Shown: positions 21,804-47,028 of the stretch, piece after piece | Layout: each line of letters starts with the position of its first letter | Position numbering within the stretch: position 1 is the stretch's first letter | Assembly (NCBI GenBank): GCA_964423745.1 | Contig: CAYRGG010000006.1 | Location: forward strand, 16,406-80,405 | Direction: 5' to 3' | DNA from: an uncultured Candidatus Competibacteraceae bacterium | GTDB lineage: Bacteria > Pseudomonadota > Gammaproteobacteria > Competibacterales > Competibacteraceae | DNA length: 64,000 bases | Translations under genes and position numbers: made by a program | Notes under the pieces: model-generated | What the model saw: only the letters and a program-made list of their open reading frames with translations | Told to the model about the DNA's origin: nothing | The model's database searches: none

Positions 21804-22634
21804 TTATTTTACAGTGCTGTCTGTTTTAACCGTCGAGTAAGCTAAAGGCACTGCGGCTTCAGGAGCCAATGGGCGGAACGTAAAGCTTTCTTGTAAATAA
21901 AGCTGTATCGAGTCGTTATTGTGGCTCAAATAACCAATAGAAAAGTCTTGACCAACCACCAGTTCAAAATCGCCACCTCGGAGACTTATTACCACTGCGC
22001 CATCGACAGCGGGCGCCCATACTACAGGACCGTCTAGCAAACGCTGTACAAAATCAAAAACCCGATAACCTCCGCGGGTTGTGGTTTCCGTCAACCCTTT
22101 GTAGCAGCGTGGACCCAGGGCAATGGCATAGGGACCTGCGATGCCTGCCTGGCGCAGTTTGCTAAGGGCTTCCGCGACCACGTTAGAGTATTTTTCGTAA
22201 TTGTCGCTAAGAGTTAGTTTCTCGGCGGCGGCTTCGCTGATGCCTTTAATATGACCTGCTGCATAACCATGAAAAATAGCGTGGTCCTCAGCCATTGCGA
22301 TAACCCGAGCCGCTTCTATGACTGGTTGCATATCGGCATCTTTACTACCACGTTCGATGGATTCAAGCTCGTTACGGGATAAGGTAAATGGAATACGTAG
22401 CTCAACCAGGGGTTGCACGCGACGCAAATGGGCATGAACATTAGCACCGAGCGATTCACTAAGGGTGTCGGTGCGGCCAGTATCTATAGCAGAATGTGAC
22501 CAACCGAGAGGACCGATAAAGTCGACTATTTTGCGGGCTGCAAGGGTTAATTTAAAAGTACGTGTAGCTTCCTCTTGAATTTCTTCCCAGGCGGCTGGAG
22601 TAATGGGTGCTAATTCACGCAGTAAATTGTTCAT
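21804..22634 (-). CDS. Family 1 encapsulin nanocompartment shell protein.
   Basis: 276 aa. N-terminus MNNLLRELAPITPAAWEEIQEEA is the hallmark encapsulin start. It lies immediately downstream of a cargo gene that carries a targeting peptide. Confidence 0.8.
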   Translation of the reverse strand: MNNLLRELAPITPAAWEEIQEEATRTFKLTLAARKIVDFIGPLGWSHSAIDTGRTDTLSESLGANVHAHLRRVQPLVELRIPFTLSRNELESIERGSKDADMQPVIEAARVIAMAEDHAIFHGYAAGHIKGISEAAAEKLTLSDNYEKYSNVVAEALSKLRQAGIAGPYAIALGPRCYKGLTETTTRGGYRVFDFVQRLLDGPVVWAPAVDGAVVISLRGGDFELVVGQDFSIGYLSHNNDSIQLYLQESFTFRPLAPEAAVPLAYSTVKTDSTVK

Positions 22635-22637
22635 GGT

Positions 22638-23021
22638 TTATTTTTCTCCCCGTAAACTACCGATGCCTAGCGAACCGTCAGTGGTGACGTGCGGTGAATC
22701 TTCTTCATCTTGTTCTTCTTCCATTTCTTCAACGTCGGTTATGGCGACTTTACTAAAAAGATACGTGCGCAGTTGCTCGTCCCAACCTGGATCATGACGC
22801 CGTAGCCACTCCAGCACCATTGCCGCATGTTCTTTTTCTTCATCACGGTTGTGAGCGAGAACAGCCCGCAAATCGTCGTCTGTGGTAGCGTCCACCCGTT
22901 GATCATACCAGTCAACTGCTTCCAGCTCTTCCATTAAAGATACAATGGCGCGATGACGTTCGATGGTGGCCGCCGTTAATTTCGTTTTGTCTTCGTGCAG
23001 GGTTTCACTGGCGCTTGCCAT
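22638..23021 (-). CDS. Encapsulated ferritin-like cargo protein (EncFtn-type) with a C-terminal encapsulin targeting peptide.
   Basis: 127 aa with ferritin-like E/H residues. The C-terminus DGSLGIGSLRG matches the GSLGIGSL targeting-peptide consensus. The gap to the shell gene is 3 nt. Confidence 0.75.
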   Translation of the reverse strand: MASASETLHEDKTKLTAATIERHRAIVSLMEELEAVDWYDQRVDATTDDDLRAVLAHNRDEEKEHAAMVLEWLRRHDPGWDEQLRTYLFSKVAITDVEEMEEEQDEEDSPHVTTDGSLGIGSLRGEK

Positions 23022-26649: not shown

Positions 26650-28494
26650 TTACTCAGCCAAAAGAGGAAACTCATCAAATTTGACCACTGCCGACTCAGG
26701 ATCGCGGGTATCAAAGACATAACTTTTAACCGTACCTGCTCGCGTATCCAGAATACTAAAGGCAGTCAATTCATTAGAGTCAATACACGGTAATTCATTG
26801 CCATTATCATCTTGTTGAGGCGCAAAGATACTCGGTGGAATAGGCAATAAGCCATGAGGATCTCCGGTGCTGACATAATTTGCACTGTCGTAACGAGGGT
26901 CATCAGGTACATTCCCTCGTTCTTTATAACCTTCCAAATAACAACCAAAACTATTACCCACATTAGACGTTTCTAGGTAATGTACGCCTGCTGCATTTTG
27001 CAGATGAAACCACACATGGGAGTGCCCTTGATGGACCAGTTGAACACCGGTTTCATTCAACAGGGGTTCGATATCGCGGATTAAAATATCAGCCTCGATG
27101 GGATATTCATAGCGTACTGCGGTAAGACGCCCCTCGTCGTCATAGTCGATGATTTGCTCTGGATGTGCAAATACGGGGTTGTAGTTATCTCCGATGCCAT
27201 GAGGTCCTTGGTGCATGACCACCACTTTGTAACGGGCGTTTTTGAACATCTCGCTATTTAACTGTTCCACTAACCAATTGTATTGCTCACTGCCCACCGC
27301 TAAATCTTCAAAAATAAAATCCCCATAACCCCAATTGTCCGGTTTGCTCAGATCTGCCTCTGGCTCTCGGTATTTGCCCCGGGCACTGGCTTGTAAACTG
27401 GGTGTGCGCCAAATGCGGGTGGCATAAAGCCCGATCATATAAACGTCTCCATAGGGGATGGCGTAATAGCGCTCCCCGGATGGGGCATCATCAGGCAGGG
27501 TAAAAAGTTCCTCATAGGTTATGGTGTTATAGGAATTGTCCTGAATCCATTGTTCCCGTACAGTGGGATCATCAAAAGGGTTGACAATGTTTTCCAGCCG
27601 TTCGTAACGCTGTTCAGCGATGGGACGGGGTTGGGGATCATTATACTGGTCACTGGTGGTCGTGCTAGGATTAAAACGTCCCATGACTTCGTGATTACCC
27701 ACCACCGGAAAAAGCGGTGCATGTTGAATAATCTCCCCACCCTGGTAAGTCACTTGACTGGTATAGGTGATGCCATTGCGCGTTTGGCTACGTTCGAGGG
27801 TGTGCATGGCCCGACCTTGCAAACTGGGGAAAAAAGCAAAACCACGATTGTCATCAAACCATTCCGAGGCGCGATCAGGAATATTGACTAAATCACCGGC
27901 GAAAAAAACCGCATCCACCCGACCGATGGTTTCTACAACTTTTTGGAGGTTGGCAGGGGTCATGGCTTTGAGTTGATGATCGGAGGTCAACAATATTTTT
28001 AAAGGCTGTCCTTCAGCAGGCAAAGGTGCGAGGGTAAATTTTTCACTGCTGATTCTTTGTCCTTCCTCAGTAATACTCGTCACCCGATAATTTCGCCGTT
28101 CCCCTGGATGAAGCCCCGTTACTTCGGCTTCGTGTCGCCAAATATCTCTCACCGTAGTGGTTTGATAAATCTGGCCATCTTCCGTTTGTTCACCCACGCG
28201 GGAACGTTCGTCTTCAAACATACGGCTGAGTTTGATGGTATGAGCCGCAAACCTGTCGCCGTCAACCTTAACAAAGTGCTTAGTTCCAGCAAACTCAGTA
28301 AACCAAACCACATGCACTGAGCTATCTGTGGGCAATTGCAAAAAAGGATCAGTAAGTAATGTGGTGGGCAAGGTTGTGTCTTCATCTTGCGCCACTGCTA
28401 GCCCCATTAGTGCAATGAGACTGACTGTTATAATAGCGTTTCTCAACTTTCCCATGAGATTTCCATTTTTGTAGCGTTTTCTATGGAAACCCAT
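26650..28494 (-). CDS. Secreted calcineurin-like metallophosphoesterase (purple acid phosphatase-like).
   Basis: Signal peptide. Motifs GDLVN...DR, VVGNHE, VVMHQGPH and GHSHVW. Confidence 0.65.
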   Translation of the reverse strand: MGFHRKRYKNGNLMGKLRNAIITVSLIALMGLAVAQDEDTTLPTTLLTDPFLQLPTDSSVHVVWFTEFAGTKHFVKVDGDRFAAHTIKLSRMFEDERSRVGEQTEDGQIYQTTTVRDIWRHEAEVTGLHPGERRNYRVTSITEEGQRISSEKFTLAPLPAEGQPLKILLTSDHQLKAMTPANLQKVVETIGRVDAVFFAGDLVNIPDRASEWFDDNRGFAFFPSLQGRAMHTLERSQTRNGITYTSQVTYQGGEIIQHAPLFPVVGNHEVMGRFNPSTTTSDQYNDPQPRPIAEQRYERLENIVNPFDDPTVREQWIQDNSYNTITYEELFTLPDDAPSGERYYAIPYGDVYMIGLYATRIWRTPSLQASARGKYREPEADLSKPDNWGYGDFIFEDLAVGSEQYNWLVEQLNSEMFKNARYKVVVMHQGPHGIGDNYNPVFAHPEQIIDYDDEGRLTAVRYEYPIEADILIRDIEPLLNETGVQLVHQGHSHVWFHLQNAAGVHYLETSNVGNSFGCYLEGYKERGNVPDDPRYDSANYVSTGDPHGLLPIPPSIFAPQQDDNGNELPCIDSNELTAFSILDTRAGTVKSYVFDTRDPESAVVKFDEFPLLAE

Positions 28495-28626: not shown

Positions 28627-29010
28627 TCAGTTCCCCAAAATATGTTGCGCTAAAGTTCTTTGCACATCGAGAACGCTTGCGCCCTTTTTGAACTGGTGTT
28701 GAATGGGCATGGATTCCCCGGAAATGTAGATTTTCAACTCAGCATCCAGGTCGAAATGCCCTGCGGTCTCGACACTAAAACGCACAATGCTTTTATAAGG
28801 AATCGATTGATATTCCGCCTTCTTACCGGTCATACCTTGTTTATCCACAATCATTAAGCGTCTATTGGTAAATATTAAGGTATCGCGGATGAGTTTGTAG
28901 GCAAGATCCACAGTCTCGCCCGGTATTAATAGATTGGCTATTTCTGTTTCCAGTTTTTGCGTATCCACTTCAGACGCATTACCCAACATACCTGAAAGAA
29001 ACCCCATCAT
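28627..29010 (-). CDS. Bacterial PH-domain (bPH/YokE-like) protein.
   Basis: 127 aa. A core resembling LIFTNRRLMIVDKQG is present. Confidence 0.4.
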   Translation of the reverse strand: MMGFLSGMLGNASEVDTQKLETEIANLLIPGETVDLAYKLIRDTLIFTNRRLMIVDKQGMTGKKAEYQSIPYKSIVRFSVETAGHFDLDAELKIYISGESMPIQHQFKKGASVLDVQRTLAQHILGN

Positions 29011-29041: not shown

Positions 29042-30670
29042 TTATACGGTTTTATTTTTAGACTGCAAATTCGACACCAGTTGCCAATCCAAACCAAACT
29101 TAGCCAGATATTTTTGCAGTCTAGCGGAATCGTTAGCACTGCGTTTTTTCTGTCGGGATTGCGCAAACAGTTCCCGCCCTGCCGCCGCTTGGCTAGGATG
29201 GCGCTGACACAACTCAACCACATAAGCCAGCTGCACGCGATCAAAAGGATCCAAAGCGCTAACCTGATCTTCATCTAGCAATCTATGGAGACTCTGCTGA
29301 CCATCAATGACAGTGGTGTCTACCGCCGGTTGCCAAGCGCGGGTTAAACGATCGATCTCGGCTGCGACAATCGCACTGTTGATCCGCCCGGCGCCAGCTA
29401 AAATACCCATCCGATAGATGCTCGCATTTAGATCCCGAAAGTTATGTCGCCAATGGCCGTTTGGACCGCAAGCAAATTGTAGATATGCGCTACGCGCCGC
29501 CTTGTTAAAATCCACCACGCGCCCTTCGTTTTCGGCAAATCGGCGTAGCTCAAACTCAATATTAGGTTCGATATCTTCTTTGCGTTCTGCTAACCCCGGT
29601 AGCTGATAGCTCCACAGATCAATACGCGCTAACAGATCGTCCCTGAAATGACCTGCCGCCACCGCTTGTTGCAAATCTTTATTGGTTCCCGCAATCAGGG
29701 TGAAGGCGCTGCTGACCGGTTGATCGGCGCCCAGGGGATAAAATGATTTTTCTTCCAAGGCGTGGAGTAGCATCGCTTGTTCATCTGTTCCCAGTTCGCC
29801 AATCTCATCCAGAAACAATAGCCCGCCATCGGCGCATTTCAGTAAACCTGCCCTTTCTTTCTGAGCACCGGTAAACGCTCCTTTAACGTGACCAAATAGC
29901 GTTGACTGGGCTTGATCGCTCCGTAGGGTCGCACAGTTGACACTGACGAACTCCCCCGTCACATGCCCTCGCTGATGTTTCAGCTCATAGATACGCCGCG
30001 CCAATTCCGTTTTACCAGAGCCAGTGGGGCCACTCAGCAGTATCGGCGCTCGGCTGCGAATGGCAATGGTTTCTATCTGGGTGATGAGCGTGTTAAATCC
30101 AGGGTTTGCGGTTTTGATGCCGGCTTTAAGAAATGCTTCCCCCTCTAACTGCTCGTTATAAAACCGTGCGGAAAGCTGATCGTACTTGGATAGGTCCAAA
30201 TCGATGATCTGATAGGAGCCCTTGTTCCGCACTGTTCCATCGTCGGTTTTGCCAGGGGAAAGCTGCAGCAGCTTGGCAGGCAAATGACGACTCTCCGCCA
30301 ACAAAAACCAACAAATCTGAGCCACATGGGTGCCTGTGGTGATGTTCACCAAATAGCGGGTCTCTTGATCGAAGCGCTGCTGCTTAACAAAGTCGAATAG
30401 CTTGGCATATACCTCTTCAAAATCCCACGGTTGCACAAAGTTCATGGGATGAAGCGTGACTTTAATGGTGTCCCGGCAAAAGCGTGCGTCGTCTGCCACC
30501 CGATTCGCTAACCCCAGGGAATGATTGTCGTGGAGCAGCACCAACTCATCCACCACCAGATCTTCATGCATCGCCAAGGCAACATTAGGCCGCCACTTAT
30601 CCCAACGGCTTACCCGACGTCCGGCAAAGTCCAACTGTATGCCGAGAATACTGAAAACCACGGTTCTCAT
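29042..30670 (-). CDS. rtcR: RtcR: sigma-54-dependent transcriptional activator with an N-terminal CARF domain.
   Basis: 542 aa. The N-terminus MRTVVFSILGIQLDFAGRRVSRWDKWRPNVAL is the RtcR CARF start. The AAA+ sigma-54 activator core has GPTGSGKTELARRIY and a GAFTGA-type loop. Confidence 0.8.
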   Translation of the reverse strand: MRTVVFSILGIQLDFAGRRVSRWDKWRPNVALAMHEDLVVDELVLLHDNHSLGLANRVADDARFCRDTIKVTLHPMNFVQPWDFEEVYAKLFDFVKQQRFDQETRYLVNITTGTHVAQICWFLLAESRHLPAKLLQLSPGKTDDGTVRNKGSYQIIDLDLSKYDQLSARFYNEQLEGEAFLKAGIKTANPGFNTLITQIETIAIRSRAPILLSGPTGSGKTELARRIYELKHQRGHVTGEFVSVNCATLRSDQAQSTLFGHVKGAFTGAQKERAGLLKCADGGLLFLDEIGELGTDEQAMLLHALEEKSFYPLGADQPVSSAFTLIAGTNKDLQQAVAAGHFRDDLLARIDLWSYQLPGLAERKEDIEPNIEFELRRFAENEGRVVDFNKAARSAYLQFACGPNGHWRHNFRDLNASIYRMGILAGAGRINSAIVAAEIDRLTRAWQPAVDTTVIDGQQSLHRLLDEDQVSALDPFDRVQLAYVVELCQRHPSQAAAGRELFAQSRQKKRSANDSARLQKYLAKFGLDWQLVSNLQSKNKTV

Positions 30671-30716
30671 TGGCGTTCCTTTGTCATTTGATGAGAAAAC
30701 TCATATGGATATATAT

Positions 30717-30732
30717 CTATCTATATAGATAG
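30717..30732. promoter_or_regulatory. Perfect 16 bp palindrome CTATCTATATAGATAG in the rtcR-divergent intergenic region. It is a candidate operator or UAS.
   Basis: Read directly from the sequence. It lies between the rtcR start and the sigma-54 promoter. Confidence 0.3.
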
Positions 30733-30854
30733 TTTAACCACTTACCCTGCTTATGGTAGATAAATAGGGATTAACTGAAAATAATTTAAAATAGTATTGT
30801 TTATCATTATCTTAAGTAATTTTCACTAGACGCTTTCTGAGCATGACTGCAGCT

Positions 30855-30870
30855 TGGCACAGCTCTAGCA
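30855..30870 (+). promoter_or_regulatory. Sigma-54 (-24/-12) promoter: TGGCAC-N5-TAGCA.
   Basis: GG and GC elements are spaced exactly as in the consensus TGGCAC-N5-TTGCA. It is divergent from rtcR and about 185 bp from the rtcR start. Confidence 0.5.
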
Positions 30871-30963
30871 ATTACACCCTGTGAATGCCTAACGCAAAGG
30901 TGCTGATTCTGTAAGCCAGCCTGGCATGGGCCAGTCAATCCCTCATGTACCGCGTGGTGTTCA

Positions 30964-31035
30964 GACTTGATAGCTCAGTTGGTAGAGCGATGGATATCAC
31001 TCCATTTGGCGCAGGTTCAACTCCTGCTCAAGTAC
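30964..31035 (+). ncRNA. tRNA-like element. The D-arm and T-arm are canonical, but the anticodon loop is non-canonical at 6 nt, the terminal acceptor pair is mismatched, and no CCA is encoded. It could be a Y-RNA-like tRNA mimic or a tRNA pseudogene.
   Basis: D-arm GCTC-AGTTGGTA-GAGC. T-arm GCAGG-TTCAACT-CCTGC. 6/7 acceptor pairs. Anticodon stem ATGGA/TCCAT with loop TATCAC. Confidence 0.4.
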
Positions 31036-31409
31036 AAAAAACCGAACTTTTAATTCGGCATGGTAAAGGTCATTGACCTGGGGTTCGACTCCCCTTGTCG
31101 TCATAAACGACACCCTTATAACAAGGGCTTCGGCCCACAGCCAGTGGGAATAGCCGGGCGCAGTTGGCCCGGACCAGTACCACCAAACACCGGTCGGCAG
31201 CGTTACTGTCCACAGGATTAGCTTCAGACGAAGGCCAACCTGATGAGTGACCGGCCCAGGAGGCGCTAAGCAAGTGATCCAAACACCTAGTCCAAGATTA
31301 GGTCAGGAGCGCTTATCTAGTAGCTAGGGTCTGTCACCTTGAGGGTCCGCTCAATCTACACTGATTTTGCAACGGTATCCCCCGACCGGTACTTTATGAG
31401 GAAATAATA

Positions 31410-32591
31410 ATGTTTGGTATAAAAAGAATTTTGGTGGCGGATAACGAGCGTGTTGTGTTGTTTAAAAATCGCCGCTTTGCACAAGTGTTAACACCTGGCG
31501 AATACACACTGGTTGATCTGAAGAACCGTATGGAAACGGTTACCTTTAACCTGGATTTGGTAGAAGTGGTAGACAGCAAACTGGACTGGTTGCTGCAACA
31601 GCCCAGCTTTGCCAGATTGGTGGATTGCTACCAGCTTAATCGTGAAGAAATAGCGATCTTATACCAGCGAAACGAGATGGTGCGTTTGGTGGAACCCGGT
31701 GAGCGTTTGGTGGTATGGAGAGATGCGGCTGATGCCCGGGTCGAAGTAATCCCAGTGGCAGAGCTGACCCCAGTGCAAGATCCACTGCTGTCGCAACTGC
31801 AGAAAAAAGGTTGGGAACGCTCGGCAAAAGGCTATAGGTTAGTGAGTGTTTCAGTACCGGCACAGCAGGTAGCGCTGTTGTTTGATAACGGTAACTATGT
31901 AAAAACCTTGCCGTCGGGTCGGTATGGTTACTGGAACTACAACCGGGATGTCTCGTTGGATCTGTATGACTTAAAACTACAAACCACCGAGGTCAGTGGC
32001 CAGGAGATTCTGACCAAGGATCGGGTGAGCCTGCGGGTTAACCTGAGTGCCAGCTATAAGATCAGCGATGTGGTGCTGGCCGCCGAATCGGTCAACAACC
32101 TGAGCGATTATATCTATCGGCAGCTACAGTTGGCGCTGCGAGAAGTGATTGGCACCCGTTCACTGGATGAGTTACTGGCGGATAAAAACGTAGTCAGCGC
32201 TGTGGTGCAGAAACAAAGTCAGACCCGTTTGGCGGATGTGGGTGTGTCGCTGATGGCTGTGGGTGTCCGGGATATCATCCTGCCCGGTGAGATGAAGGAT
32301 ATTCTCAATCAGGTGGTGCAGGCCCAGAAGGCGGCGGAAGCCAACGTCATTAAGCGACGGGAAGAGACTGCCGCGACCCGTTCGCTACAGAACACCGCGA
32401 AGTTTATGGAGGGTAATCCTACCCTGCTGCGGTTGAAGGAATTGGAGACATTGGAAAAAGTGGCGGAGCGGATCGACCGTATCACCGTCGTGGGTGGTTT
32501 GGATCAGGTGCTCAACAATATGGTGACCATTAATCCAACAGGTAACAATAGTGGTGCGTCGTCAAACGTCACCAAAATAGATAACGGTTAA
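31410..32591 (+). CDS. SPFH/band-7 (slipin/flotillin-like) domain protein with an N-terminal extension.
   Basis: 393 aa. The SPFH core starts around residue 155. The C-terminal coiled region is rich in Q/A/E. Confidence 0.6.
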   Translation: MFGIKRILVADNERVVLFKNRRFAQVLTPGEYTLVDLKNRMETVTFNLDLVEVVDSKLDWLLQQPSFARLVDCYQLNREEIAILYQRNEMVRLVEPGERLVVWRDAADARVEVIPVAELTPVQDPLLSQLQKKGWERSAKGYRLVSVSVPAQQVALLFDNGNYVKTLPSGRYGYWNYNRDVSLDLYDLKLQTTEVSGQEILTKDRVSLRVNLSASYKISDVVLAAESVNNLSDYIYRQLQLALREVIGTRSLDELLADKNVVSAVVQKQSQTRLADVGVSLMAVGVRDIILPGEMKDILNQVVQAQKAAEANVIKRREETAATRSLQNTAKFMEGNPTLLRLKELETLEKVAERIDRITVVGGLDQVLNNMVTINPTGNNSGASSNVTKIDNG

Positions 32592-32607
32592 ACCGATATA
32601 AGCAACT

Positions 32608-32643
32608 AATCAGCAGGTCCCCATGGGCCTGCTGATTTTTTTT
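32608..32643 (+). terminator. Rho-independent terminator of the SPFH gene.
   Basis: ATCAGCAGG...CCTGCTGAT hairpin followed by T8. Confidence 0.6.
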
Positions 32644-32846
32644 GCCCCAAGAGTCTCGAAAGGTACGGAAGATCTCGACGTACCCACCAAAGCAGTAAAA
32701 GGGAACAACACACTGGAAAAGAGGCCGCCGACCCTCTAACCCCACTAATACAGAAAGCCATATCTAAGTATGATAAATTACTGAGCTAATTTCCACTTCA
32801 ACGCAGACTAACCTCACCGGTTAGCTTAGCCGCTAGAGATCAATTC

Positions 32847-35122: not shown

Positions 35123-36099
35123 CCGACGATTACGATAGTCCCTGGAAGGATGTGCTAGAGCGTTACTTTCAGGCATTTATAGCTTTTTGCTTTCCCCAAG
35201 CTCATGACGAGATCAATTGGGTGAGAGGCTACGAAAGCCTCGATACCGAATTGCAGCAAATCGTGCGGGATGCAGACAGCGGTCGCCGTTTAGCCGATAA
35301 ACTGATGAAGGTTTGGCGCTGCGATGGGCAAGAACAAATTGTTTTGATCCACATCGAAGTGCAAGGCGAGCCGGACTCCAAGTTCACTGAACGGATGTTT
35401 ATCTATCACTACCGGCTTTATGATCGTTATCGTCAGCCCATTGTTAGTATAGCTGTGTTGGGGGACGATCAATCCAACTGGCGACCCGAGCAGTATCAAA
35501 CGGAGCTTTGGGGGTGCCAAACGCGCTTACGTTTTCCAGTGGTGAAGCTTATGGATTACACAGCAAATTGGCAGGTTTTAGAAAATAGCGCCAATCCCTT
35601 CGCCACCCTAATCATGGCGCACCTTAAAACCAAAGCTACCCGGCATGATCCATCCGGTCGCTTGGTTTGGAAACTACGATTAGTAAAACGACTTTACGAA
35701 AAAGGTTATAACCGCGAAGATGTATTAGAAATGTTTCGGTTTATTGACTGGTTGCTGGCGCTGCCGCCAGAATTAGAACAGCAATTTACTGTACAGTTGA
35801 GTGACTATGAGGCTGCCATGAGTACACCATATATCACTAGCATAGAGCGACTAGGTATTGAGAAAGGCCGTCAGCAGGGACTTGAGCAGGGACTTGAGCA
35901 GGGACTTGAGCAGGGTATATTGCAAGGCGAACGTCAGTTGTTGGTACGCCAAGCTCGGCTGCGTTTTGGAGATGCTGTAGCAGAAGCTTTGGGAAAAAAG
36001 ATCGAACCAATCAATGACCCAGAGCGATTAGCTGACATCGGGGTGTGGATTATCGAGTGCGAATCCGGTGAGGCGCTGTTGACGCGGTTAAAAAGGTAG
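35119..36099 (+). CDS. Rpn-family / DUF4351 PD-(D/E)XK recombination-promoting nuclease (putative transposase-like).
   Basis: N-terminus DSPWKDVLERYFQAFIAFCFPQ is the family start motif. C-terminal GLEQGLEQGLEQG repeats. ATGA overlap with the upstream gene. Confidence 0.5.
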   Translation: MTDDYDSPWKDVLERYFQAFIAFCFPQAHDEINWVRGYESLDTELQQIVRDADSGRRLADKLMKVWRCDGQEQIVLIHIEVQGEPDSKFTERMFIYHYRLYDRYRQPIVSIAVLGDDQSNWRPEQYQTELWGCQTRLRFPVVKLMDYTANWQVLENSANPFATLIMAHLKTKATRHDPSGRLVWKLRLVKRLYEKGYNREDVLEMFRFIDWLLALPPELEQQFTVQLSDYEAAMSTPYITSIERLGIEKGRQQGLEQGLEQGLEQGILQGERQLLVRQARLRFGDAVAEALGKKIEPINDPERLADIGVWIIECESGEALLTRLKR

Positions 36100-37205: not shown

Positions 37206-37873
37206 CTCATAATTCCTTATAGGGATAAATAACTAAAAGATCATTACCGATAGCAAGGCTTTCAATGTACTCATAACCCCTTATAGGGATAAATAACTTT
37301 TGGATGTACATGGAAGCAACCTATCCTCACAAGTCTCATAACCCCTTATAGGGATGAATAACCACCTCGCCAATCACGCCCGTGCCCTGCTCGCTGCCAC
37401 TCATAACCCCTTATAGGGATGAATAACCGTATCGAGGATGCAGCTGATAGCCACGATCAGCGCCTCATAACTCCTTATAGAAATGAATAACATTTTTTTT
37501 GTAGCCATAGCAACCATATTCTCAATCTCATAACCCCTTATAGGGATGAATAACCAGCTGCCAGTAGGGAACAGCCTCATTAGGATTCAGCCTCATAACC
37601 CCTTATAGGGATGAATAACATGGGAATATGCGCCGCCAAGGCATGGGGAGTCATCTCATAACCCCTTATAGGGATGAATAACTATCTCGACCTGGATGGC
37701 GATAAACCATTTATCGGCCTCATAACCCCTTATAGGGATGAATAACATGGGAATATGGGCCGCCAAGGCATGGGGAATCAGCTCATAACCCCTTATAGGG
37801 ATGAATAACTGATAAGCTGATTTAGAAGACAAGCATAATTTTCCTCTCATAACCCCTTATAGGGATGAATAAC
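37206..37873 (-). CRISPR. CRISPR array: 11 contiguous copies of a 28 bp repeat with 35-37 nt spacers. The leader is at the 37874-38009 side, so transcription is on the minus strand.
   Basis: Repeat starts at 37206, 37270, 37335, 37400, 37464, 37527, 37592, 37655, 37719, 37782 and 37846. The cas2-proximal repeats are perfect and the distal ones degenerate. Confidence 0.9.
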
Positions 37874-38009
37874 CCCCCAATTATGGCAAAAAAATGACTT
37901 TAGGAAAGCCATGGAATAGCAAAAAACACCTTGAAATAATATAAAAAGCACTTCAAGCCCCTATAACGAATACTTCACAGTAAATCGAAGTAAGTACAGA
38001 ATAAAAAAA

Positions 38010-38312
38010 TCACAAAACACCGAAGTCTCGCCGATGATCATCTATTGGCTGGCGTTGTACTTCACCTTTGCCCGATTCGTTTTTTTCTAGGTGAATCACT
38101 TCAATGTTGTGGCGGTTTGCAGCGGTAATTTCGGTCAACCGATCACCAGGAATCATCAATCGGCTTAACTCCCGGCGTAATTGAATAGCACTAGCCTCTG
38201 TAATGTCTCCGCAAAATACAGAGTACTGATCGTGATTCAAATACCTCTGCAGCAATTTCTTGAACTTCTGAGTACGTTTTGCCTCTACATCGTAAGTCAT
38301 TAACATATACAT
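38010..38312 (-). CDS. cas2: Cas2.
   Basis: About 100 aa. MLMTYDV...YSVF pattern. It is the last gene before the leader and array. Confidence 0.7.
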   Translation of the reverse strand: MYMLMTYDVEAKRTQKFKKLLQRYLNHDQYSVFCGDITEASAIQLRRELSRLMIPGDRLTEITAANRHNIEVIHLEKNESGKGEVQRQPIDDHRRDFGVL

Positions 38313-38330
38313 TAAATTGAACTCTGCAAA

Positions 38331-39306
38331 CTAAACTTTGCGTTTAAAAGATTCATACTCAGCGATACCCAACAAGTGACGCTCAAGAGCTAAAGCCTCC
38401 CGATACACCCATTCTCTAAAGCTACGGCCTTGATACTTCTCTTCTAAACGAATTGAAAATTGTTCCGCTACATGGCGGCGTCCTGTGTCACTAAGCAGGC
38501 ATACTCCATCGTGTTGCTCCAACCAGTTATCCGCTAGCATATTACGACCTGCCATTCGGAAAATCAGATTATCTCCCAGCACAGGTTTGAAGGGTTCGGC
38601 TAGATCCAAACTTAGCGACGAGCGGCCATTACCGGGGCTGTGCAATAGACTAAAGGTTTCCTCTAAATGTGTTTTGAAAAGCTCATGGCGGCATATCGTG
38701 TAAACCAACTGGTTTAAGAACGACAGCAGACAGTTGATGGGATTGTTAGGCGGACGGCGTACCCGGGGTCCAAAAGCCAATAGGGGATTAGTGAATTTCC
38801 AGGCATCGTAATACCACTGATGTAAATTACCCTCTATGCCCATGAGCATTGCGGTATCTTTTGCTTTGTGAAGGCTCTTCAACAACCGTTGCATCTCAGT
38901 AATCGGTTTTTTTAATTTTTCATTTTTCATTGCCTCTATAGCGGTAATAGAGCAGATTAACGCACATATTATGGCCAGCTCCGCGCACAATTTCTCTGGC
39001 CAAGGCCATACGCTGCCGGTGGTCCAGCAGTGCCTGTGCCTGTATCAGCTTCACTCGTCCGGAAGGGTTACTAGCAACGGGTTCGAAAACGCCTTTGCAA
39101 TAACCATAGTAATCAAATACCGATAACCGCACACCATGCTTACCACACAGGCTCAGTAGCCGGGTGTTGAGATCACTTTCGCCTAGCAGCACCAAATGGC
39201 CAATCTTCTCAATAGGGAGGGCACGGGTACGGCCGCCGGTAGTGAGCATCAGCGTGTTTTCCCGGCGCCGCAAATGTGCCTCCCGGGAGACAAATAACGT
39301 TTCCAT
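38331..39306 (-). pseudogene. cas1: Cas1 interrupted by a frameshift. The N-terminal ORF is 38920-39306 and the C-terminal ORF is 38331-38990.
   Basis: The N-terminal beta-domain and C-terminal alpha-domain (RRPPNNPINCLLSF, DLAEPFKPVLGD) lie in different frames. The combined length of about 325 aa is typical for Cas1. Confidence 0.7.
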
Positions 39307-39314
39307 TCTTTTCC

Positions 39315-39863
39315 TCAGTCATGTCCACAAAAGGCAGCCAACGAGCAGCTAGCGCACAAGGGGATACGCTTAGCGGTTGGCACGGTTTGTTGTTGCGCCA
39401 ACGCTTGCAAATGCTCAGAGGATTGCCATAGGTTTTCTAGTTGTTTTACATCCAACGGCACCTCGCGGCGTTGGCGCGTAGACAGCACATGGGTAATCGC
39501 TCGCCACGCCTTGCCTGTAGCGATGGATAACAGCACGGCATAAAAGGCGGTCTGGTCATTACTGGCTTCCACAGCGCCTCCGGTATCCTTGTTCTCATAT
39601 ACGATGTGGTTTTCCCAGTCAATCCGATCCGGGGTCAGACCAAACAACCCGATAGTGGAACTATCACGAGCATAGCTGGTGAGATGTTTGGCAGTACCCA
39701 CAGCCACCCGTCCATGCCACTGGGCAAAGTTAATGCCGTGAAAATACATCCACGCCCGCCGCTGACACAGTTTAACGTGTTGAAAGTGCAGACCGTGCAA
39801 ACCGAGTCGATCGACGCGCTCAATAAACGCCGCTGCTCGGTTCCAGCGAAATAGCGTCGTCAT
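39315..39863 (-). CDS. cas4: Cas4 (RecB-like nuclease with an Fe-S cluster cysteine motif).
   Basis: C-terminal Cx2Cx5C (CASCSLAAFC) plus an N-terminal Cys. An ExK-like core IVYENKDTGG. Confidence 0.6.
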   Translation of the reverse strand: MTTLFRWNRAAAFIERVDRLGLHGLHFQHVKLCQRRAWMYFHGINFAQWHGRVAVGTAKHLTSYARDSSTIGLFGLTPDRIDWENHIVYENKDTGGAVEASNDQTAFYAVLLSIATGKAWRAITHVLSTRQRREVPLDVKQLENLWQSSEHLQALAQQQTVPTAKRIPLCASCSLAAFCGHD

Positions 39864-41808
39864 CGGTGTCCACCACTAAACCTGTACAAAGAACTAATTT
39901 TTCCGCTGCCGCTAAAGCCTGCGGATAAGTATCCCAAGGGGCATTAGGGTCGCTGTGCAACTCCCGACGCCACGCATCTGGTAAAAAACCCTTATCATCC
40001 AGTGCAGCTGTGTATTGGGTGTGAGGAAAGTGAACGCTGCGTTTTTTCGCCACATAGCGGTGCTGGTCTCGGAGGGACTCTTCTAGACGACCTTGGATCA
40101 GTAATTCCTCGTCGCCGTCCTCTCCCACCACTGACGGGCAGGTATCCAGTAGGTCAGTCTCACGCCGTAACCAGTTCAAATCAACACTAAGGGTGCGGCC
40201 ACGCTCGTCGCGTACCCGCAGCCGTTGCCCTATGTCCCGCAAGGTGTGAGCGGCCTGTTTGAATTTCGTTAACCAGGTTTTGGCGGGTGCGCAGAAGTAA
40301 GGGTCATCACACAGCTCACCCACCTGCTTGAGCAGCGCAAAAATCATCCCTGCTGTGGGCGGTTGACAAGCCCGCAGATGCTCGCGCCGAGGCCCTTTGT
40401 TGCTTGGATGTTCCAGCAATACATTCCAGTACAATCCAGCACTGTAAGCAGCGCGGTTGTTGAGGCTACCAAAATGTGGGTTGTTCGCGTTTTCGTCTAC
40501 GGGTTTAAAACGGGTTTTGGTATCTCGGGCCAGCACGTTGGTTAGGTCGGCAATCCCGACCACACTGTCGGCATGAGTCTTAAGCCAATGTTGCAATCGT
40601 CGCAACCAGGGATTGCGCTGCTCCATAGCAGCGTCAATCCGCACCCATACCTGACCCTGATGATGACCACGGGCAGCGCGGCCATAACGCTGGAGAAAAT
40701 TGAGTGGTGCAAATCCCGGTTCCATAAATAGTAGATTAGCGCCGAATGTCACGCCCATTTCGACACTGGCCGTGGCGATGAGTACGTCGAAAGCCAAGGG
40801 ATCGTGATCCCGCCCAGCGACAAAGTAATCGTTAAAGTTTTGCCCCTGATGACTGTCGTGGATGCTGTTGACCAGCAATGCTTTACCCGCCACGATGCCT
40901 GCTGAAATAAAATGCCGGTGTAAGGAGGGAAGCTGGCGGATCAAATCCGCCAAGGAATTATAGATGACGACCACCTGTCGCTTGGCCTTGACCTCATCCC
41001 TGACTTGCTGCAGATGCTCACCCAAAAGGTCTGCCAAACAGGCGCTAGGGTGAAAACTCAGAGTCACATCTCCATGGACGGGACGCCCACCAGGAGTAAG
41101 CTTCTCCTCCAACAGCGCCATGTCTGTGTTGTTTACCCCAATCTTGTTCAGCACTGGCGCTATGTCGATGGGTGTGGCAGAGAGAAAAGTGACCTTTGCC
41201 CGTCCGGGGACCACACCGTTTTGCGCTGCGACGGCTAGACGCGCACACACCGCAGCCAGACCAAAACCGCGGCTGTCGATGGTGTGAAATTCATCAAAAA
41301 CCAGGTGATCAAATTGAGTCAGTAGCTCGAAGATACCTTCAGCCCCTTGACCGGCTTGTAAATAACGGCCGATCAATAGATAACTGACTACTTCTGGTAC
41401 CGTAAAGACGATCTCACCGCCCCGGCGTGGCGAAAGCTCATAGAGGTCTCGAAGTCGTTGCACGGTAATCTCGCGCACCCCAATCGCACGTTGCCGTTGC
41501 GCCTCGTCGCTGGTCCATAGGGCAACCTTAGTTTCGGCGAGGGTGGGTTCCCAACCCTGTTCATGGACCAGTGCTAGCCGGGTGCTTTGAGCAAGATTCT
41601 GGGCTAGACGCCGGGTCGGCACGATGAATAATACCCGCGTCTGTTGTTGCGCCACCGCTCGTTGAAAGGCATAGCTTTTGCCCGCGCCAGTGGGTGCGCT
41701 GGCAATGCGTACAGCATGGGGATCATCCAGCAATGCCTGCTGAAAGGGCGATAAGCCAGTTTCTGCGCTGCCACCGTCCACAAAGTGTTTAGCAACGGTC
41801 AATTCCAT
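39820..41808 (-). CDS. cas3: Cas3' superfamily-2 helicase without an HD domain. The start is probably the ATG at 41808, which has a GGAGG Shine-Dalgarno; the ORF track extends to 41874.
   Basis: Walker A SAPTGAGKS close to the N-terminus. DExH box VFDEFH. No room for an HD domain. Confidence 0.7.
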   Translation of the reverse strand: MELTVAKHFVDGGSAETGLSPFQQALLDDPHAVRIASAPTGAGKSYAFQRAVAQQQTRVLFIVPTRRLAQNLAQSTRLALVHEQGWEPTLAETKVALWTSDEAQRQRAIGVREITVQRLRDLYELSPRRGGEIVFTVPEVVSYLLIGRYLQAGQGAEGIFELLTQFDHLVFDEFHTIDSRGFGLAAVCARLAVAAQNGVVPGRAKVTFLSATPIDIAPVLNKIGVNNTDMALLEEKLTPGGRPVHGDVTLSFHPSACLADLLGEHLQQVRDEVKAKRQVVVIYNSLADLIRQLPSLHRHFISAGIVAGKALLVNSIHDSHQGQNFNDYFVAGRDHDPLAFDVLIATASVEMGVTFGANLLFMEPGFAPLNFLQRYGRAARGHHQGQVWVRIDAAMEQRNPWLRRLQHWLKTHADSVVGIADLTNVLARDTKTRFKPVDENANNPHFGSLNNRAAYSAGLYWNVLLEHPSNKGPRREHLRACQPPTAGMIFALLKQVGELCDDPYFCAPAKTWLTKFKQAAHTLRDIGQRLRVRDERGRTLSVDLNWLRRETDLLDTCPSVVGEDGDEELLIQGRLEESLRDQHRYVAKKRSVHFPHTQYTAALDDKGFLPDAWRRELHSDPNAPWDTYPQALAAAEKLVLCTGLVVDTDDDAISLEPSSGVY

Positions 41809-42446
41809 TGGTTGACCTCCGCGAAGGCATCTTGCAAAGGCATCTCGGCGCTGAGTTGTAAGCTGTGGAGGCAATAGCGGCTTACTCGTAGCCGGCTGCG
41901 CGGATTGAACAACACTGCCGTGGCAGCGTTCAACCGCACCGAGTTCACAGGGGTTTCAGCATCACAGGGTTTGAGCGCCACCATACCATTACGGTGCAGA
42001 CCGACGCGAATGACTAGCATGTCCTTACCCGTGTAGGCAAAGGGATTAAACCCGAACACAGCGCCGTAGAAGTGTTGGTCGGGCGGCACTTCTTGGGTGT
42101 GAAAAAAGGTTTTAAGGTTGCCTTTGCGGGTAACATCATCGAGTTTTTTTTGAAACCCCCCTTCACTATCTAGGTTAAACCGCCGCGTTAGCGGGGCTAA
42201 TAGACGCGGTTCCGGGGTGGTAAGTACCGATGTTCGGTACGGCATGGCCCTCAAATGACGGCGATAGTCTTTATCCGGCAACAACAGACGTGCGTCCATC
42301 CAGCCTAAAGTAGCGGCCAACCCAAAGGCCAATGCCTGGTCGCCAATCAACTCCGGCAGGGTGGCACTACCACCTTGCACCATTAAACTGTGGTAAGCAA
42401 AGGGGGTTAGGGTAATAGCCTGAATTGGGGTGATGATGGATTCCAT
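41799..42446 (-). CDS. cas5: Cas5-group RAMP (Csc1-like).
   Basis: 215 aa. Glycine-rich segments typical of RAMPs. Its position between cas7 and cas3', and the AGGAG Shine-Dalgarno, also fit. Confidence 0.45.
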   Translation of the reverse strand: MESIITPIQAITLTPFAYHSLMVQGGSATLPELIGDQALAFGLAATLGWMDARLLLPDKDYRRHLRAMPYRTSVLTTPEPRLLAPLTRRFNLDSEGGFQKKLDDVTRKGNLKTFFHTQEVPPDQHFYGAVFGFNPFAYTGKDMLVIRVGLHRNGMVALKPCDAETPVNSVRLNAATAVLFNPRSRLRVSRYCLHSLQLSAEMPLQDAFAEVNQWN

Positions 42447-42470
42447 AAGATGACTCCTTGAGTAGTCGAT

Positions 42471-43478
42471 TCAGCTGGCTTTTTTGCTGCCAAACCAGCT
42501 GTCGAACAAGTTGGCCACCTGCTTGGCTACGCCTCGATATTGATCTCGTAAGCTCCCATCATCCCCTTCAAAACGCTCAATCAAGCGGTGCAGATAATCT
42601 TCTAACGAAGCGCCATCTACGGTGGCCGGGTGTAGATTGGCAAGTCGGTTATGGAGCGATTGGGTTACGGCATTGACGTCACTGAGCTGGGATTCGGGCA
42701 ACTCTTTTAGCAGAGTTTTCAGCAGTTCGTAGGGAGAAGTTTCCGCCCGCTCAAAGGGCGCGGCGTAGGCCCCTACGAAGTAGGTGCGGATGTTAGTGCC
42801 GGTGAGGGAGGTTTGGCCGCCGTAAGCCCCTGCCAGGCCCAGGCATAGCAACAGATGATCTAAACCTTCCCGGGGTAACACCTGTCCCCGAGTCGATAAT
42901 ACTTGCATCAACAGCGTCCCCGGCGTCACGAAGTGGCGGGTAAACAAGTTTTCGCTGTTTTTCTTCTCCACGGCATCGAACAGCGTGCCATCCTCGGCAG
43001 CACGGTTATGGAATGTCTCGTCAACACACAGATGTTTTGGCAACAGACTCAAGGCATCAGAATAATTGACGGCGGCTTTGACCGGCAACACCCGGTTGTC
43101 TTGCGTGGTGGAATCACCGAACACGAGGGTGTTCAGGTCAAAGGCTTCCGAGGGTGCTTGCCCTTTATTGAGTGCCGTCCGGTTTTGCGGGTGTCGCCCT
43201 CCGACGCCATAGGCTCGCAGGATTTGTAGCCCCCGCCCCTTTTCTGGATATTTGAACTTATTGGGTACAGCTCGCATATGGACGCTGCCATCCAGGTCGA
43301 TGTCGGTGATTTCTTCTTCAGCATTGCGAAATACGCTAGGTGCGATGGTTTTTCGCAATAGTACTAAACTGACACTGCCGAGATTCTTTAAGGCGGGATG
43401 GATATATTGCTGTTTTCCGTCGCTACTGGTATCGGTGAGATGGGTAAGCTCGGCGAGAAAGGGGTTTAAGGTATCCAT
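42471..43478 (-). CDS. cas7: Cas7-group RAMP (Csc2-like). The start is taken at the ATG at 43478, which has a strong AGGAGA Shine-Dalgarno.
   Basis: About 335 aa. Its position after the large subunit fits. The Shine-Dalgarno overlaps the stop of the upstream gene. Confidence 0.45.
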   Translation of the reverse strand: MDTLNPFLAELTHLTDTSSDGKQQYIHPALKNLGSVSLVLLRKTIAPSVFRNAEEEITDIDLDGSVHMRAVPNKFKYPEKGRGLQILRAYGVGGRHPQNRTALNKGQAPSEAFDLNTLVFGDSTTQDNRVLPVKAAVNYSDALSLLPKHLCVDETFHNRAAEDGTLFDAVEKKNSENLFTRHFVTPGTLLMQVLSTRGQVLPREGLDHLLLCLGLAGAYGGQTSLTGTNIRTYFVGAYAAPFERAETSPYELLKTLLKELPESQLSDVNAVTQSLHNRLANLHPATVDGASLEDYLHRLIERFEGDDGSLRDQYRGVAKQVANLFDSWFGSKKAS

Positions 43479-43480
43479 GG

Positions 43481-46303: not shown

Positions 46304-47028
46304 CGTCCTACTCCCTGCTCCAATAATCCTAGACAACCGAATCCACTGCGGGTCTTTTCCCCGATGCCGGCATACCAAGCGAGGCGCAGATCCACTTCGC
46401 TGCCCGCTAATACCAACGGTGCCCTCATGCCAATTACAAAGCTGCGTTTGCCGTTAGCCATTTTTTTCAGTGGCACCAATACGGAATGCTCAGGATTTGC
46501 CCGCAGATACAATCGATCGGGTTGGGCCTGTAACCGCACCTCGCGGCCAGCAAGACGGGACAATCGGCGGTTAATGACAGTGGCTAAGTCGATGCTGCTT
46601 AAGTCTTTAAGCCAACGTTTACGGTTGTTTTCCCGGATGCTGATTGCCAGTGGCGAGAGCATCAACAAACCCATAACCCCCTCGCCCGGTGGTATAGGAT
46701 CTTGTTCTTGAATAACCTCGGCAGAACTAAAATCGATCATCTCAGCGGTTTGAGCGCGAGCGTGACGAATGTGGACGGGGTCCATTTGCCGGAGTTTTTG
46801 CGCCAACCTGGGATCGAGTGTGGATACCACCAAGGTATGTACGCTGCTAGCATCTTTGTATCGACGGCCTAAAGCTGCGAAATTCCAGGGACTTGCCGAT
46901 GAGCCTATTATCTCCTCAGCCTCAACACCGGTGGCTGTAAAACCGTTGATAAGGGCATCATGGAGGAGGTCGAGGTGTTGGTAGCAAGCCGTTTTAGGTA
47001 AACGTATCCGTATGCGATTCATAGACAT
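46300..47028 (-). CDS. cas6: Cas6 crRNA endoribonuclease.
   Basis: C-terminal glycine-rich loop GIGEKTRSGFGCLG. 242 aa. It is the first gene of the operon. Confidence 0.6.
   Translation of the reverse strand: MSMNRIRIRLPKTACYQHLDLLHDALINGFTATGVEAEEIIGSSASPWNFAALGRRYKDASSVHTLVVSTLDPRLAQKLRQMDPVHIRHARAQTAEMIDFSSAEVIQEQDPIPPGEGVMGLLMLSPLAISIRENNRKRWLKDLSSIDLATVINRRLSRLAGREVRLQAQPDRLYLRANPEHSVLVPLKKMANGKRSFVIGMRAPLVLAGSEVDLRLAWYAGIGEKTRSGFGCLGLLEQGVGR

Follow-up and report, generated by a model that had tools for sequence, protein, structure and literature searches.

What does the transcriptional activator RtcR control at a locus that carries none of the RNA repair enzymes with which it is usually linked? 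The question is raised by a 64-kb stretch of DNA from an uncultured Candidatus Competibacteraceae bacterium (GenBank assembly GCA_964423745.1, contig CAYRGG010000006.1, positions 16,406 to 80,405; hereafter the window). Here rtcR is divergent from a sigma-54 type promoter, which is followed by a tRNA-like element and a gene for an SPFH/Band-7 protein. A first-pass annotation of this DNA had proposed an RtcR regulon rewired to a tRNA-mimic RNA and a membrane scaffold protein or, alternatively, a long structured 5' leader sensing the same signal as the CARF domain of RtcR. We find that rtcR indeed faces a sigma-54 promoter for the tRNA-like element and the SPFH gene, while the claim of novelty does not hold: a tRNA-like RNA together with a Band-7 protein had been predicted as 'b7a-tRNA' beside RtcB by Burroughs and Aravind in 2016 (as cited in bioRxiv 10.1101/312249). 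As b7a-tRNA and Band-7 form a predicted accessory module of RtcB/RtcR systems, normally placed ahead of rtcB, the arrangement is not a new rewiring. In its organization the locus is an RtcR-driven operon minus the enzymes, i.e. a ligase-less variant of a known, experimentally untested module.

Based on the gene identities, the conservation of promoter and palindrome, the RNA structures and the census of gene arrangements, all of which are direct observations described below, we consider it highly likely that the locus is a b7a-tRNA/Band-7 module controlled by RtcR and sigma-54 without a linked ligase. The downstream mechanism, including RNA processing, formation of a particle and an action on tRNA damage, is much less certain.

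RtcR and its conserved promoter region

The rtcR gene is intact, as the first pass had it, with a full-length equivalog match and all motifs in place (Table 1). Its product scores 744.7 bits against the NCBIfam equivalog RNA_repair_RtcR (NF038308, cut-off 650) over residues 2-533, and combines an N-terminal RtcR/CARF domain (PF06956, 5e-68, residues 2-184) with a Sigma54_activat domain (PF00158, 7.4e-48), in which the Walker A motif GPTGSGKT starts at residue 214 and GAFTGA at residue 264. This is further supported by a PADLOC match to RtcR--CARF_AAA_HTH (7.7e-234) and by 53% identity to E. coli RtcR. For the Salmonella protein the ligand has been described as a 5' tRNA half with a 2',3'-cyclic phosphate end (PMC7790460).

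To compare the locus with its relatives we assembled 80 genome loci, 32 metagenome loci and eight exact-protein look-ups (loci carry L numbers). Identity of their SPFH proteins to that of the window is at most 49% in the genome scan, 42-48% in the metagenome scan (one partial match, 55%) and 51-57% in the exact-protein look-ups. An adjacent divergent rtcR is present in 36 of the loci, which are mutually related, yet come from several orders. All 36 contain TGGCAC-N5-T[TCA]G (at least 8 of 9 positions) at 134-201 bp from the rtcR start; the distance in the window is 185 bp, on the opposite strand, and the more stringent TGGCAC-N5-TWGCA has its single match in the 64 kb there, with 0.06 expected. 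The sigma-54 match of the earlier annotation is thus confirmed together with its presence in relatives. As the -12 elements of relatives are often TTGA, TTGT or TCGC instead of TTGC, the TAGCA of the window falls within the range of the family.

A perfect palindrome lies 137 bp upstream of the -24 element and had been noticed as a possible RtcR upstream activating site. Its core TATC-N6-GATA occurs three times in the window compared to 0.89 expected, so that the palindrome becomes significant only through its conservation. With at most one mismatch the core is found near the rtcR start in 35 of the 36 rtcR-adjacent loci, 22 of them exact, and in most cases some 140-145 bp ahead of the -24 element; by a rough estimate an exact 8-base site would occur by chance in a 200-bp interval about 0.003 times per locus. 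The palindrome hence sits where an upstream activating site is conserved, which supports it as the putative binding site of RtcR.

The rtc operons of E. coli and Salmonella share this layout: a divergent rtcR, a site near its start, an A/T-rich spacer and a sigma-54 promoter, in E. coli CTGGCACGACGGTTGCA. The E. coli site consists of GATA-N6-TATC-type repeats, whereas the palindrome of the window reads TATC-N6-GATA. At the E. coli rtcBA promoter an IHF site is reported between the upstream activating site and the promoter (PMC9650030), and the A/T-rich spacer of the window contains a candidate IHF-like match (Table 1).

The leader closest to that of the window is found in Oleiphilus messinensis (L086, 7446-9158), amid RHS toxin fragments and with no rtcR within 8 kb. 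This locus retains a perfect sigma-54 motif (TGGCACCGCTCTTGAAAT), which implies control by an RtcR encoded elsewhere.

The tRNA-like element

The tRNA-like element named by the first pass is recovered by both Rfam and ARAGORN. It scores 49.1 bits with the Rfam tRNA model (gathering score 29) and is the sole match when the whole window is scanned at the gathering threshold, while ARAGORN labels it 'tRNA-???'. The anticodon loop has 8 nt, or 6 nt if an extra A-U pair is allowed, positions 1 and 72 form a G/A mismatch and CCA is not encoded. The element is encoded on the strand of the SPFH gene, 375 nt ahead of it.

This placement is a recurrent feature: of 84 loci, 67 have between one and three same-strand tRNA-likes called by ARAGORN in the 520 nt that precede the SPFH gene. 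Anticodon loops of 6 or 8 nt are present in 23 of 88 SPFH-proximal tRNA-likes compared to 2 of 138 other tRNAs from the same loci, and CCA is encoded by 25 of 120 proximal elements versus 120 of 141 distal tRNAs. Elements typed as 'Ser' or 'Leu' are only 70-78 nt long, bar three longer outliers, and therefore mostly have no long variable arm. Within the clade of the window the acceptor, D and T arms are conserved and the anticodon loop varies in both length and sequence. The SPFH-proximal tRNA-likes thus differ from ordinary tRNAs in anticodon-loop length and in the missing CCA.

Many loci without rtcR have the RNA-SPFH module adjoining a large array of canonical tRNA genes, up to 24 of them on the same strand within 5 kb (L008 3881-7623; L074 3542-7679; L010 9995-13706; also L017, L020, L046, L048, L054, L055, L056 and L060). 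The array tRNAs mostly encode CCA. Such arrays beside a tRNA-mimic module suggest a tRNA-damage island.

A conserved modular RNA on both sides of the tRNA-like element

Judged from alignments and covariation, the whole stretch of about 530 nt from the promoter to the start codon is a conserved, covarying and modular RNA, with a folding z-score of -3.0 relative to shuffled sequence. It begins with a 5' domain that lies 24-42 nt from the conserved promoter among relatives and is formed by three helices (Table 1), the P3 hairpin having a GG...CC base with a 2-nt 3' bulge. The structure was specified by hand on a MAFFT alignment of 16 sequences (A2), in which 86.9% of the cells are paired and 18 of the 23 pairs show compensatory changes. 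Covariation amounts to 0.463, compared to 0.206 after shuffling (0/500) and at most 0.109 when the partners are slid against each other. A covariance model built from A2 (R1) detects the domain in 48 loci, the window scoring 45.6 bits (E 7.8e-13); in a 51-row alignment 87.1% of the cells are paired and covariation rises to 0.596. The R1 matches include loci without rtcR or a sigma-54 motif as well as loci with the RNA downstream of rtcA. The RNA modules therefore belong to the SPFH module and not to the RtcR promoter or to signal sensing. The leader proposed in the first-pass annotation accordingly exists as a long structured RNA, while a role in sensing the RtcR signal is not borne out.

Downstream of the tRNA-like element the leader continues with a series of smaller elements (Table 1). 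A hairpin next to it is absent from aligned relatives and specific to the window. It is followed by a mini tRNA-like element with homologues of the form GG(U/A)AA(G)CC-loop-GGCU plus T-arm in L084, L086, L087, L120, L121, L123 and Competibacter-type loci. The T-arm-like hairpin within this element and the GGGC-UUCG-GCCC hairpin are both present as the first pass described them, and the stem of the latter covaries: counterparts at the same place in relatives have the stems GGAGC/GCUCC, GGGGC/GCCCC or GGGC/GCCC.

Next comes a helix with an internal loop whose two strands, GAAU and CAGUA, are invariant in an alignment of eight sequences (A5). Its flanking helices are 90% paired with compensatory changes at 7 of 10 pairs, and their covariation of 0.529 compares with 0.204 after shuffling and at most 0.125 after sliding. 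CAGUA(N)CC is also found 3' of tRNA-likes in Pseudomonas, Dechloromonas and Competibacter-type loci. By its sequence the GAAU/CAGUA loop resembles loop-E or sarcin-ricin motifs.

The remainder of the leader is a 200-nt domain closed by a long-range helix, which is present in the minimum-free-energy fold of the window. The single-sequence test for this helix is weak, as 9-bp helices arise in 12-25% of shuffles, and its support hence comes from the fixed register in L084, L086, L087, L120, L121, L122 and L124 and from compensatory changes, judged by eye, at 6 of 8 positions. Within the domain the motif CAGGA occurs three times (31213, 31257 and 31304), where 0.16 would be expected (p=6e-4). Leaders of Alteromonas and Pseudomonas likewise have CAGGA(N)G hairpins, which resemble binding sites of CsrA/RsmA; the Shine-Dalgarno sequence upstream of the SPFH gene also contains GGA.

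A search of positions 30600-31500 against Rfam at E<=10 returns tRNA plus chance-level matches only, and no family matches any leader module outside the tRNA-like element. The covariance-model check with Y RNA models that had been suggested likewise gives no match in this range. The flanking RNA domains and the closing helix are absent from the accessible literature on b7a-tRNA, to which the 2016 paper does not belong, and may be new.

A predicted soluble SPFH protein

The SPFH gene and the strong terminator behind it, both called by the first pass, are confirmed (Table 1). Between the promoter and the SPFH start codon we find no terminator-like site on the plus strand. Full-length homologues of the protein number more than 7,900, the best being 57% identical, and the named matches come mostly from Gammaproteobacteria. 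Homologues within rtc loci are 42-57% identical over 81-98% of the length; among proteins embedded in such loci is the SPFH protein PaFlo8 of P. aeruginosa (PMC13086221).

The AlphaFold model (predicted local distance difference test score 83.4) divides into beta-rich repeats at residues 1-147, the SPFH domain at 148-290 and, after it, long helices at 292-355. At the sequence level, three repeats of about 45 residues are recognised in the N-terminal region, the third of which forms the start of the SPFH domain. The model matches the folds of stomatin, HflK, prohibitin and QmcA over 205-231 residues, and the match to the vault protein is much weaker than that to stomatin, with a very large root-mean-square deviation. 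As in stomatin-type proteins, the modelled SPFH domain is followed by coiled-coil helices of the kind found in builders of rings and cages. In contrast to stomatin, HflK/C and QmcA, there is neither an N-terminal membrane anchor nor an adjoining NfeD gene, and about 147 additional residues of beta-repeats stand in front of the SPFH domain.

The 'membrane scaffold' part of the initial proposal is not supported. No membrane segment was found in the protein, the maximum 19-residue Kyte-Doolittle mean being 1.47 and located inside the SPFH domain, and the N-terminus is predicted to form beta strands and not a transmembrane or hairpin anchor. The protein is thus predicted from sequence and model to be soluble and without a membrane anchor, a feature that may be new relative to the 2016 description.

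We also considered a phage module or anti-phage defence and rejected it, as the SPFH protein has no PADLOC match and a single relative was found in 2.9 million viral contigs. A second open reading frame (56859-58040) matches the SPFH gene in its length of 393 codons but encodes an unrelated response regulator.

Table 1. Features of the rtcR-SPFH region of the window, in order of position
Feature	Position	Strand	Description
rtcR	29042..30670	-	542 residues, intact; CARF + sigma-54 AAA+ + HTH transcriptional activator
Candidate RtcR upstream activating site	30717..30732		Perfect 16-bp palindrome CTATCTATATAGATAG; core TATC-N6-GATA at 30718-30731
A/T-rich spacer with IHF-like match	30802..30814	+	Candidate, read from sequence; TATCATTATCTTA against WATCAANNNNTTR, one mismatch
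Sigma-54 type promoter	30855..30870	+	TGGCACAGCTCTAGCA; -24 TGGCAC, -12 TAGCA; predicted start ~30881
Conserved 5' RNA domain	30886..30963	+	Outer helix P1; P2 with UUC-containing loop; P3
tRNA-like element, b7a-tRNA type	30964..31035	+	Canonical D-arm and T-arm; acceptor stem of 6 bp plus G/A mismatch
Hairpin CCGAAC-UUUUA-AUUCGG	31041..31059	+	Window-specific insertion
Mini tRNA-like element	31062..31094	+	GGUAA, short hairpin, then T-arm GGGGUUCGACUCCCC
T-arm hairpin GGGGTTCGACTCCCC	31080..31094	+	Read from sequence
Hairpin GUCGU-CAUAA-ACGAC	31097..31111	+	Read from sequence; in minimum-free-energy fold
GGGC-UUCG-GCCC hairpin GGGCTTCGGCCC	31125..31136	+	Stem covaries with relatives
Helix with GAAU/CAGUA internal loop	31144..31183	+	Hairpin cap; alignment A5
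200-nt domain closed by long-range helix	31190..31389	+	CCGGUCGG (31190-31197) with CCGACCGG (31382-31389)
Shine-Dalgarno GAGGAA	31397..31402	+	8 nt past closing helix, 7 nt before ATG
SPFH/Band-7 'slipin family' gene	31410..32591	+	393 residues; Pfam Band_7 2.3e-27; intact reading frame
Intrinsic terminator	32608..32645	+	13-bp stem (32608-32637), 7 G-C pairs, then T run

Ligase-less loci among the relatives

The first-pass statement that repair genes are missing from the window was examined by tblastn with the E. coli proteins. With a threshold as permissive as E<=10 this detects neither RtcB nor RtcA anywhere in the 64 kb, and no rtcB or rtcA remnants in the 375-nt spacer. A Pfam scan of 38 open reading frames of the window finds no TROVE/Ro60 domain; it covers every frame of at least 388 residues and leaves aside about 14 of 155-219 residues. 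The statement holds within this scope.

Arrangements were counted in the 75 loci whose flanks reach 4.5 kb or more on each side. In 27 of them rtcR is divergent from the RNA-SPFH module and rtcB is nearby, and in four (the window, L031, L071 and L087) rtcR is divergent without rtcB or rtcA, so that the ligase is absent from 4 of the 31 rtcR-divergent loci. Seven loci have rtcR and rtcBA upstream of the module, eight have rtcB only beside it, and in the remaining 29 neither rtcR nor rtcB is near. These 29 loci indicate that the RNA-SPFH module is independent of an adjacent ligase.

In the clade of the window, defined by an SPFH protein identity of 51% or more, the module is accompanied by rtcB, rtcA and the gene for RlaP, a ligase-associated nucleotidyltransferase (PMC12776372). 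L120, L121 and L123 have rtcA-rtcB-rtcR and, on the opposite strand, RNA-SPFH-RlaP, and in L122 and L124 rtcR is divergent from RNA-SPFH-rtcB. The Marinobacter-type relatives L120, L121, L123 and L084 place rtcR, rtcB and rtcA head-to-tail on a single strand with RNA-SPFH-RlaP divergent, and therefore comprise two separate RtcR-linked units instead of one operon.

How a ligase-less form can arise is seen in Enterovibrio norvegicus, where strains DSM 15893 (L071) and 10N.261.45.B2 (L077) are colinear with about 90% identity and differ by exactly the 1.28-kb rtcB downstream of the SPFH gene (L071 9232-9347 without, L077 9233-10511 with), the rest being intact. As the two strains differ by rtcB alone, ligase-less forms can be attributed to simple gene loss. 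The strains constitute a natural ligase-plus/ligase-minus pair in a cultured species. A further ligase-less locus, in Aliiglaciecola sp. SL4 (L031, 7392-7991), keeps the promoter, the palindrome and the SPFH gene. A lone T-arm replaces the tRNA-like element there (ARAGORN finds none) and the 5' domain model has no match, so that L031 may be a decaying copy.

On the other side of rtcR, 31 nt past its stop codon, the window has a gene for a bacterial PH-domain protein (bPH_1, 28627-29010, minus strand) at the position taken by rtcB in its relatives. The next gene encodes a calcineurin-like metallophosphoesterase of 614 residues (26650-28494, minus strand). The pair is absent in L087, the sole relative examined downstream of rtcR.

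Other features of the window

A type I-D-like CRISPR-Cas locus occupies 37591-47028, with a short repeat array at 37591-37873 and genes for cas2, cas1 (split), cas4, a DEAD-box Cas3, Csc2 and Cas6. It also encodes a 965-residue protein that has no Pfam match and is probably Cas10d, and a WYL-domain regulator follows the locus at 47095-47892. An encapsulin (Linocin_M18) gene with an adjoining encapsulated-ferritin-like gene lies at 21804-23021 (L001 395-1612), near stress-type genes (DUF2382, PRC, DJ-1, OsmC, MscS and cytochrome bd). The best named matches of MurE are from Candidatus Competibacter (62%) and Desulfonema (59%). A perfect 12-nt tandem repeat (AGCAGGGACTTG, 3.6 copies, 35873-35915) is located inside an open reading frame of 326 codons without a Pfam match.

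Discussion

The locus shares with the b7a-tRNA module an SPFH/Band-7 family protein preceded on the same strand by a tRNA-resembling RNA, as far as that module is described in citing papers (bioRxiv 10.1101/312249 and PMC12776372), and the link to RtcR and a sigma-54 promoter, as in loci of Alteromonas, Pseudoalteromonas, Pseudomonas and Marinobacter. It differs in that RtcB, RtcA and RlaP are absent from the operon and from the 64 kb. Loci of the window type also carry conserved RNA domains on either side of the tRNA-like element, which may already be contained in the full text of the 2016 paper. The cargo of this locus, an SPFH protein and a 530-nt RNA, also differs from that of E. coli rtcBA, where only a short leader precedes rtcB, and from that of the Salmonella rsr-yrlBA-rtcBA operon, which includes Ro60 and Y RNAs. 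In contrast to the Ro60-YrlA and vault particles, the window shows neither a TROVE domain nor similarity to Y or vault RNAs, and any particle formed by its module is putative.

These findings can be combined into a tentative mechanism. The CARF domain of RtcR would sense RNA damage in the form of a tRNA half with a cyclic phosphate, as in Salmonella, whereupon RtcR would oligomerise at the TATC-N6-GATA palindrome beside its own start codon and activate the sigma-54 promoter. A single transcript of about 1.75 kb, from ~30881 to the terminator near 32640, would comprise the modular RNA of about 530 nt followed by the SPFH coding region. The tRNA mimic is probably excised by tRNA-processing enzymes, and the SPFH protein probably forms a soluble ring or cage that binds the leader RNAs, by analogy with Ro60 and Y RNA. 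The targets of such a particle might be damaged tRNA or nucleases that cut tRNA, with the particle serving as scaffold or decoy, and ligation would be supplied from elsewhere in the genome or be unneeded.

Several findings weigh against this interpretation as a whole. The b7a-tRNA was never validated experimentally (bioRxiv 10.1101/312249), and deletion of PaFlo8 in P. aeruginosa gave no phenotype in standard assays (PMC13086221). RtcA and RtcB of E. coli are reportedly required for the activation of RtcR and bind its CARF domain (PMC9650030). If the host genome were entirely without RtcA and RtcB, activation of RtcR would need another route; the absence of the ligase is established for the 64-kb window and not for the host genome. 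The -12 element of the window is TAGCA and not TTGCA, and the degraded RNA region of L031 means that ligase-less copies can decay. Binding of RtcR, the ends of the transcript, processing of the RNA, oligomerisation of the protein, its binding to RNA and the function of the module are inferences.

Could the tRNA-like element be a regular tRNA gene, used in decoding, whose position ahead of the SPFH gene is accidental? The score above the Rfam gathering threshold (49.1 versus 29 bits) and the canonical D and T arms would agree with this, but the anticodon loop of 8 (or 6) nt, the 1/72 mismatch and the missing CCA would not. As 67 of 84 loci also show this placement, the anticodon loops vary greatly, the 'Ser' and 'Leu' types are mostly short and conserved non-tRNA RNA domains lie on both flanks, we regard a chance neighbour as very improbable. 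A Ro60/Y RNA (Rsr-YrlA) system with a divergent Y RNA is hardly credible at all: YrlA also has a tRNA-like domain and is regulated by RtcR in Salmonella, but there is no TROVE domain among the scanned frames of the window and no Y RNA family at E<=10, and the tRNA-like element is a complete cloverleaf instead of a domain inserted in a Ro-binding stem. We further consider it improbable that the locus is a decaying, no longer useful remnant of an rtc operon after loss of rtcB and rtcA. The clean loss of rtcB between strains of one species, the ligase-less L031 without a tRNA-like element (ARAGORN) or 5' domain match and the small share of ligase-less loci (4 of 31) are what such a process would leave. 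Against it, rtcR is full length with all motifs, the SPFH frame is intact and modelled with high confidence, the promoter and palindrome are preserved, no conserved RNA module is missing, pairing being maintained by compensatory substitutions, and 29 of 75 loci have the RNA-SPFH module without rtcR or rtcB.

A different possibility concerns the RNA itself, which could be a purely cis-acting leader that controls stability or translation of the SPFH mRNA, with no separate tRNA-like RNA being made; it might bind, for example, the CsrA/RsmA protein or uncharged or damaged tRNA. No terminator separates the RNA modules from the coding region, the end of the long-range helix is 8 nt away from the Shine-Dalgarno sequence, the closed domain holds three CAGGA motifs against 0.16 expected, and the RNA always immediately precedes the SPFH gene in the same orientation. 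Relatives, on the other hand, differ in having one to three tRNA-like units, a variation more readily expected of a released product than of a precise switch. Moreover, the resemblance to tRNA is maintained in the acceptor, D and T arms, the features recognised by processing enzymes, and YrlA of M. smegmatis, another tRNA mimic, is cut by RNase P (PMC4201824). An exclusively cis-acting role therefore seems rather doubtful to us, though a cis-acting leader and the RtcR-controlled module favoured here are mutually compatible. With similarly low confidence we envisage that the composite RNA (5' domain, tRNA mimic and GAAU/CAGUA domain) and a soluble stomatin-like cage form a ligase-independent particle comparable to Ro-Y RNA complexes or vaults. 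The anticodon loop of the tRNA mimic would then be deliberately non-decoding and fast-varying, and the particle could, for example, trap anticodon nucleases or act as their decoy, or else provide a compartment in which broken tRNAs are held. If true, a ligase-independent core function would be displayed by the window and by the stand-alone modules (29 of 75), several of which lie beside large tRNA arrays.

For the RtcR-controlled b7a-tRNA/Band-7 module as such, the present analysis provides several handles. The pair has been a computational prediction since 2016, and the deletion of PaFlo8, with no phenotype under standard conditions, is the sole genetic test of a homologue. Given its conserved putative RtcR site and sigma-54 promoter, the module is expected to be induced by tRNA damage. 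The anatomy of the RNA now includes covariation-supported domains beyond the tRNA mimic, and the protein is predicted to be soluble. Natural ligase-less versions, including the Enterovibrio norvegicus pair, make it possible to separate the role of the module from ligation. If the module indeed gives rise to a tRNA-mimic particle that counters tRNA-cleaving toxins, it would represent a new arm of bacterial RNA-damage responses.

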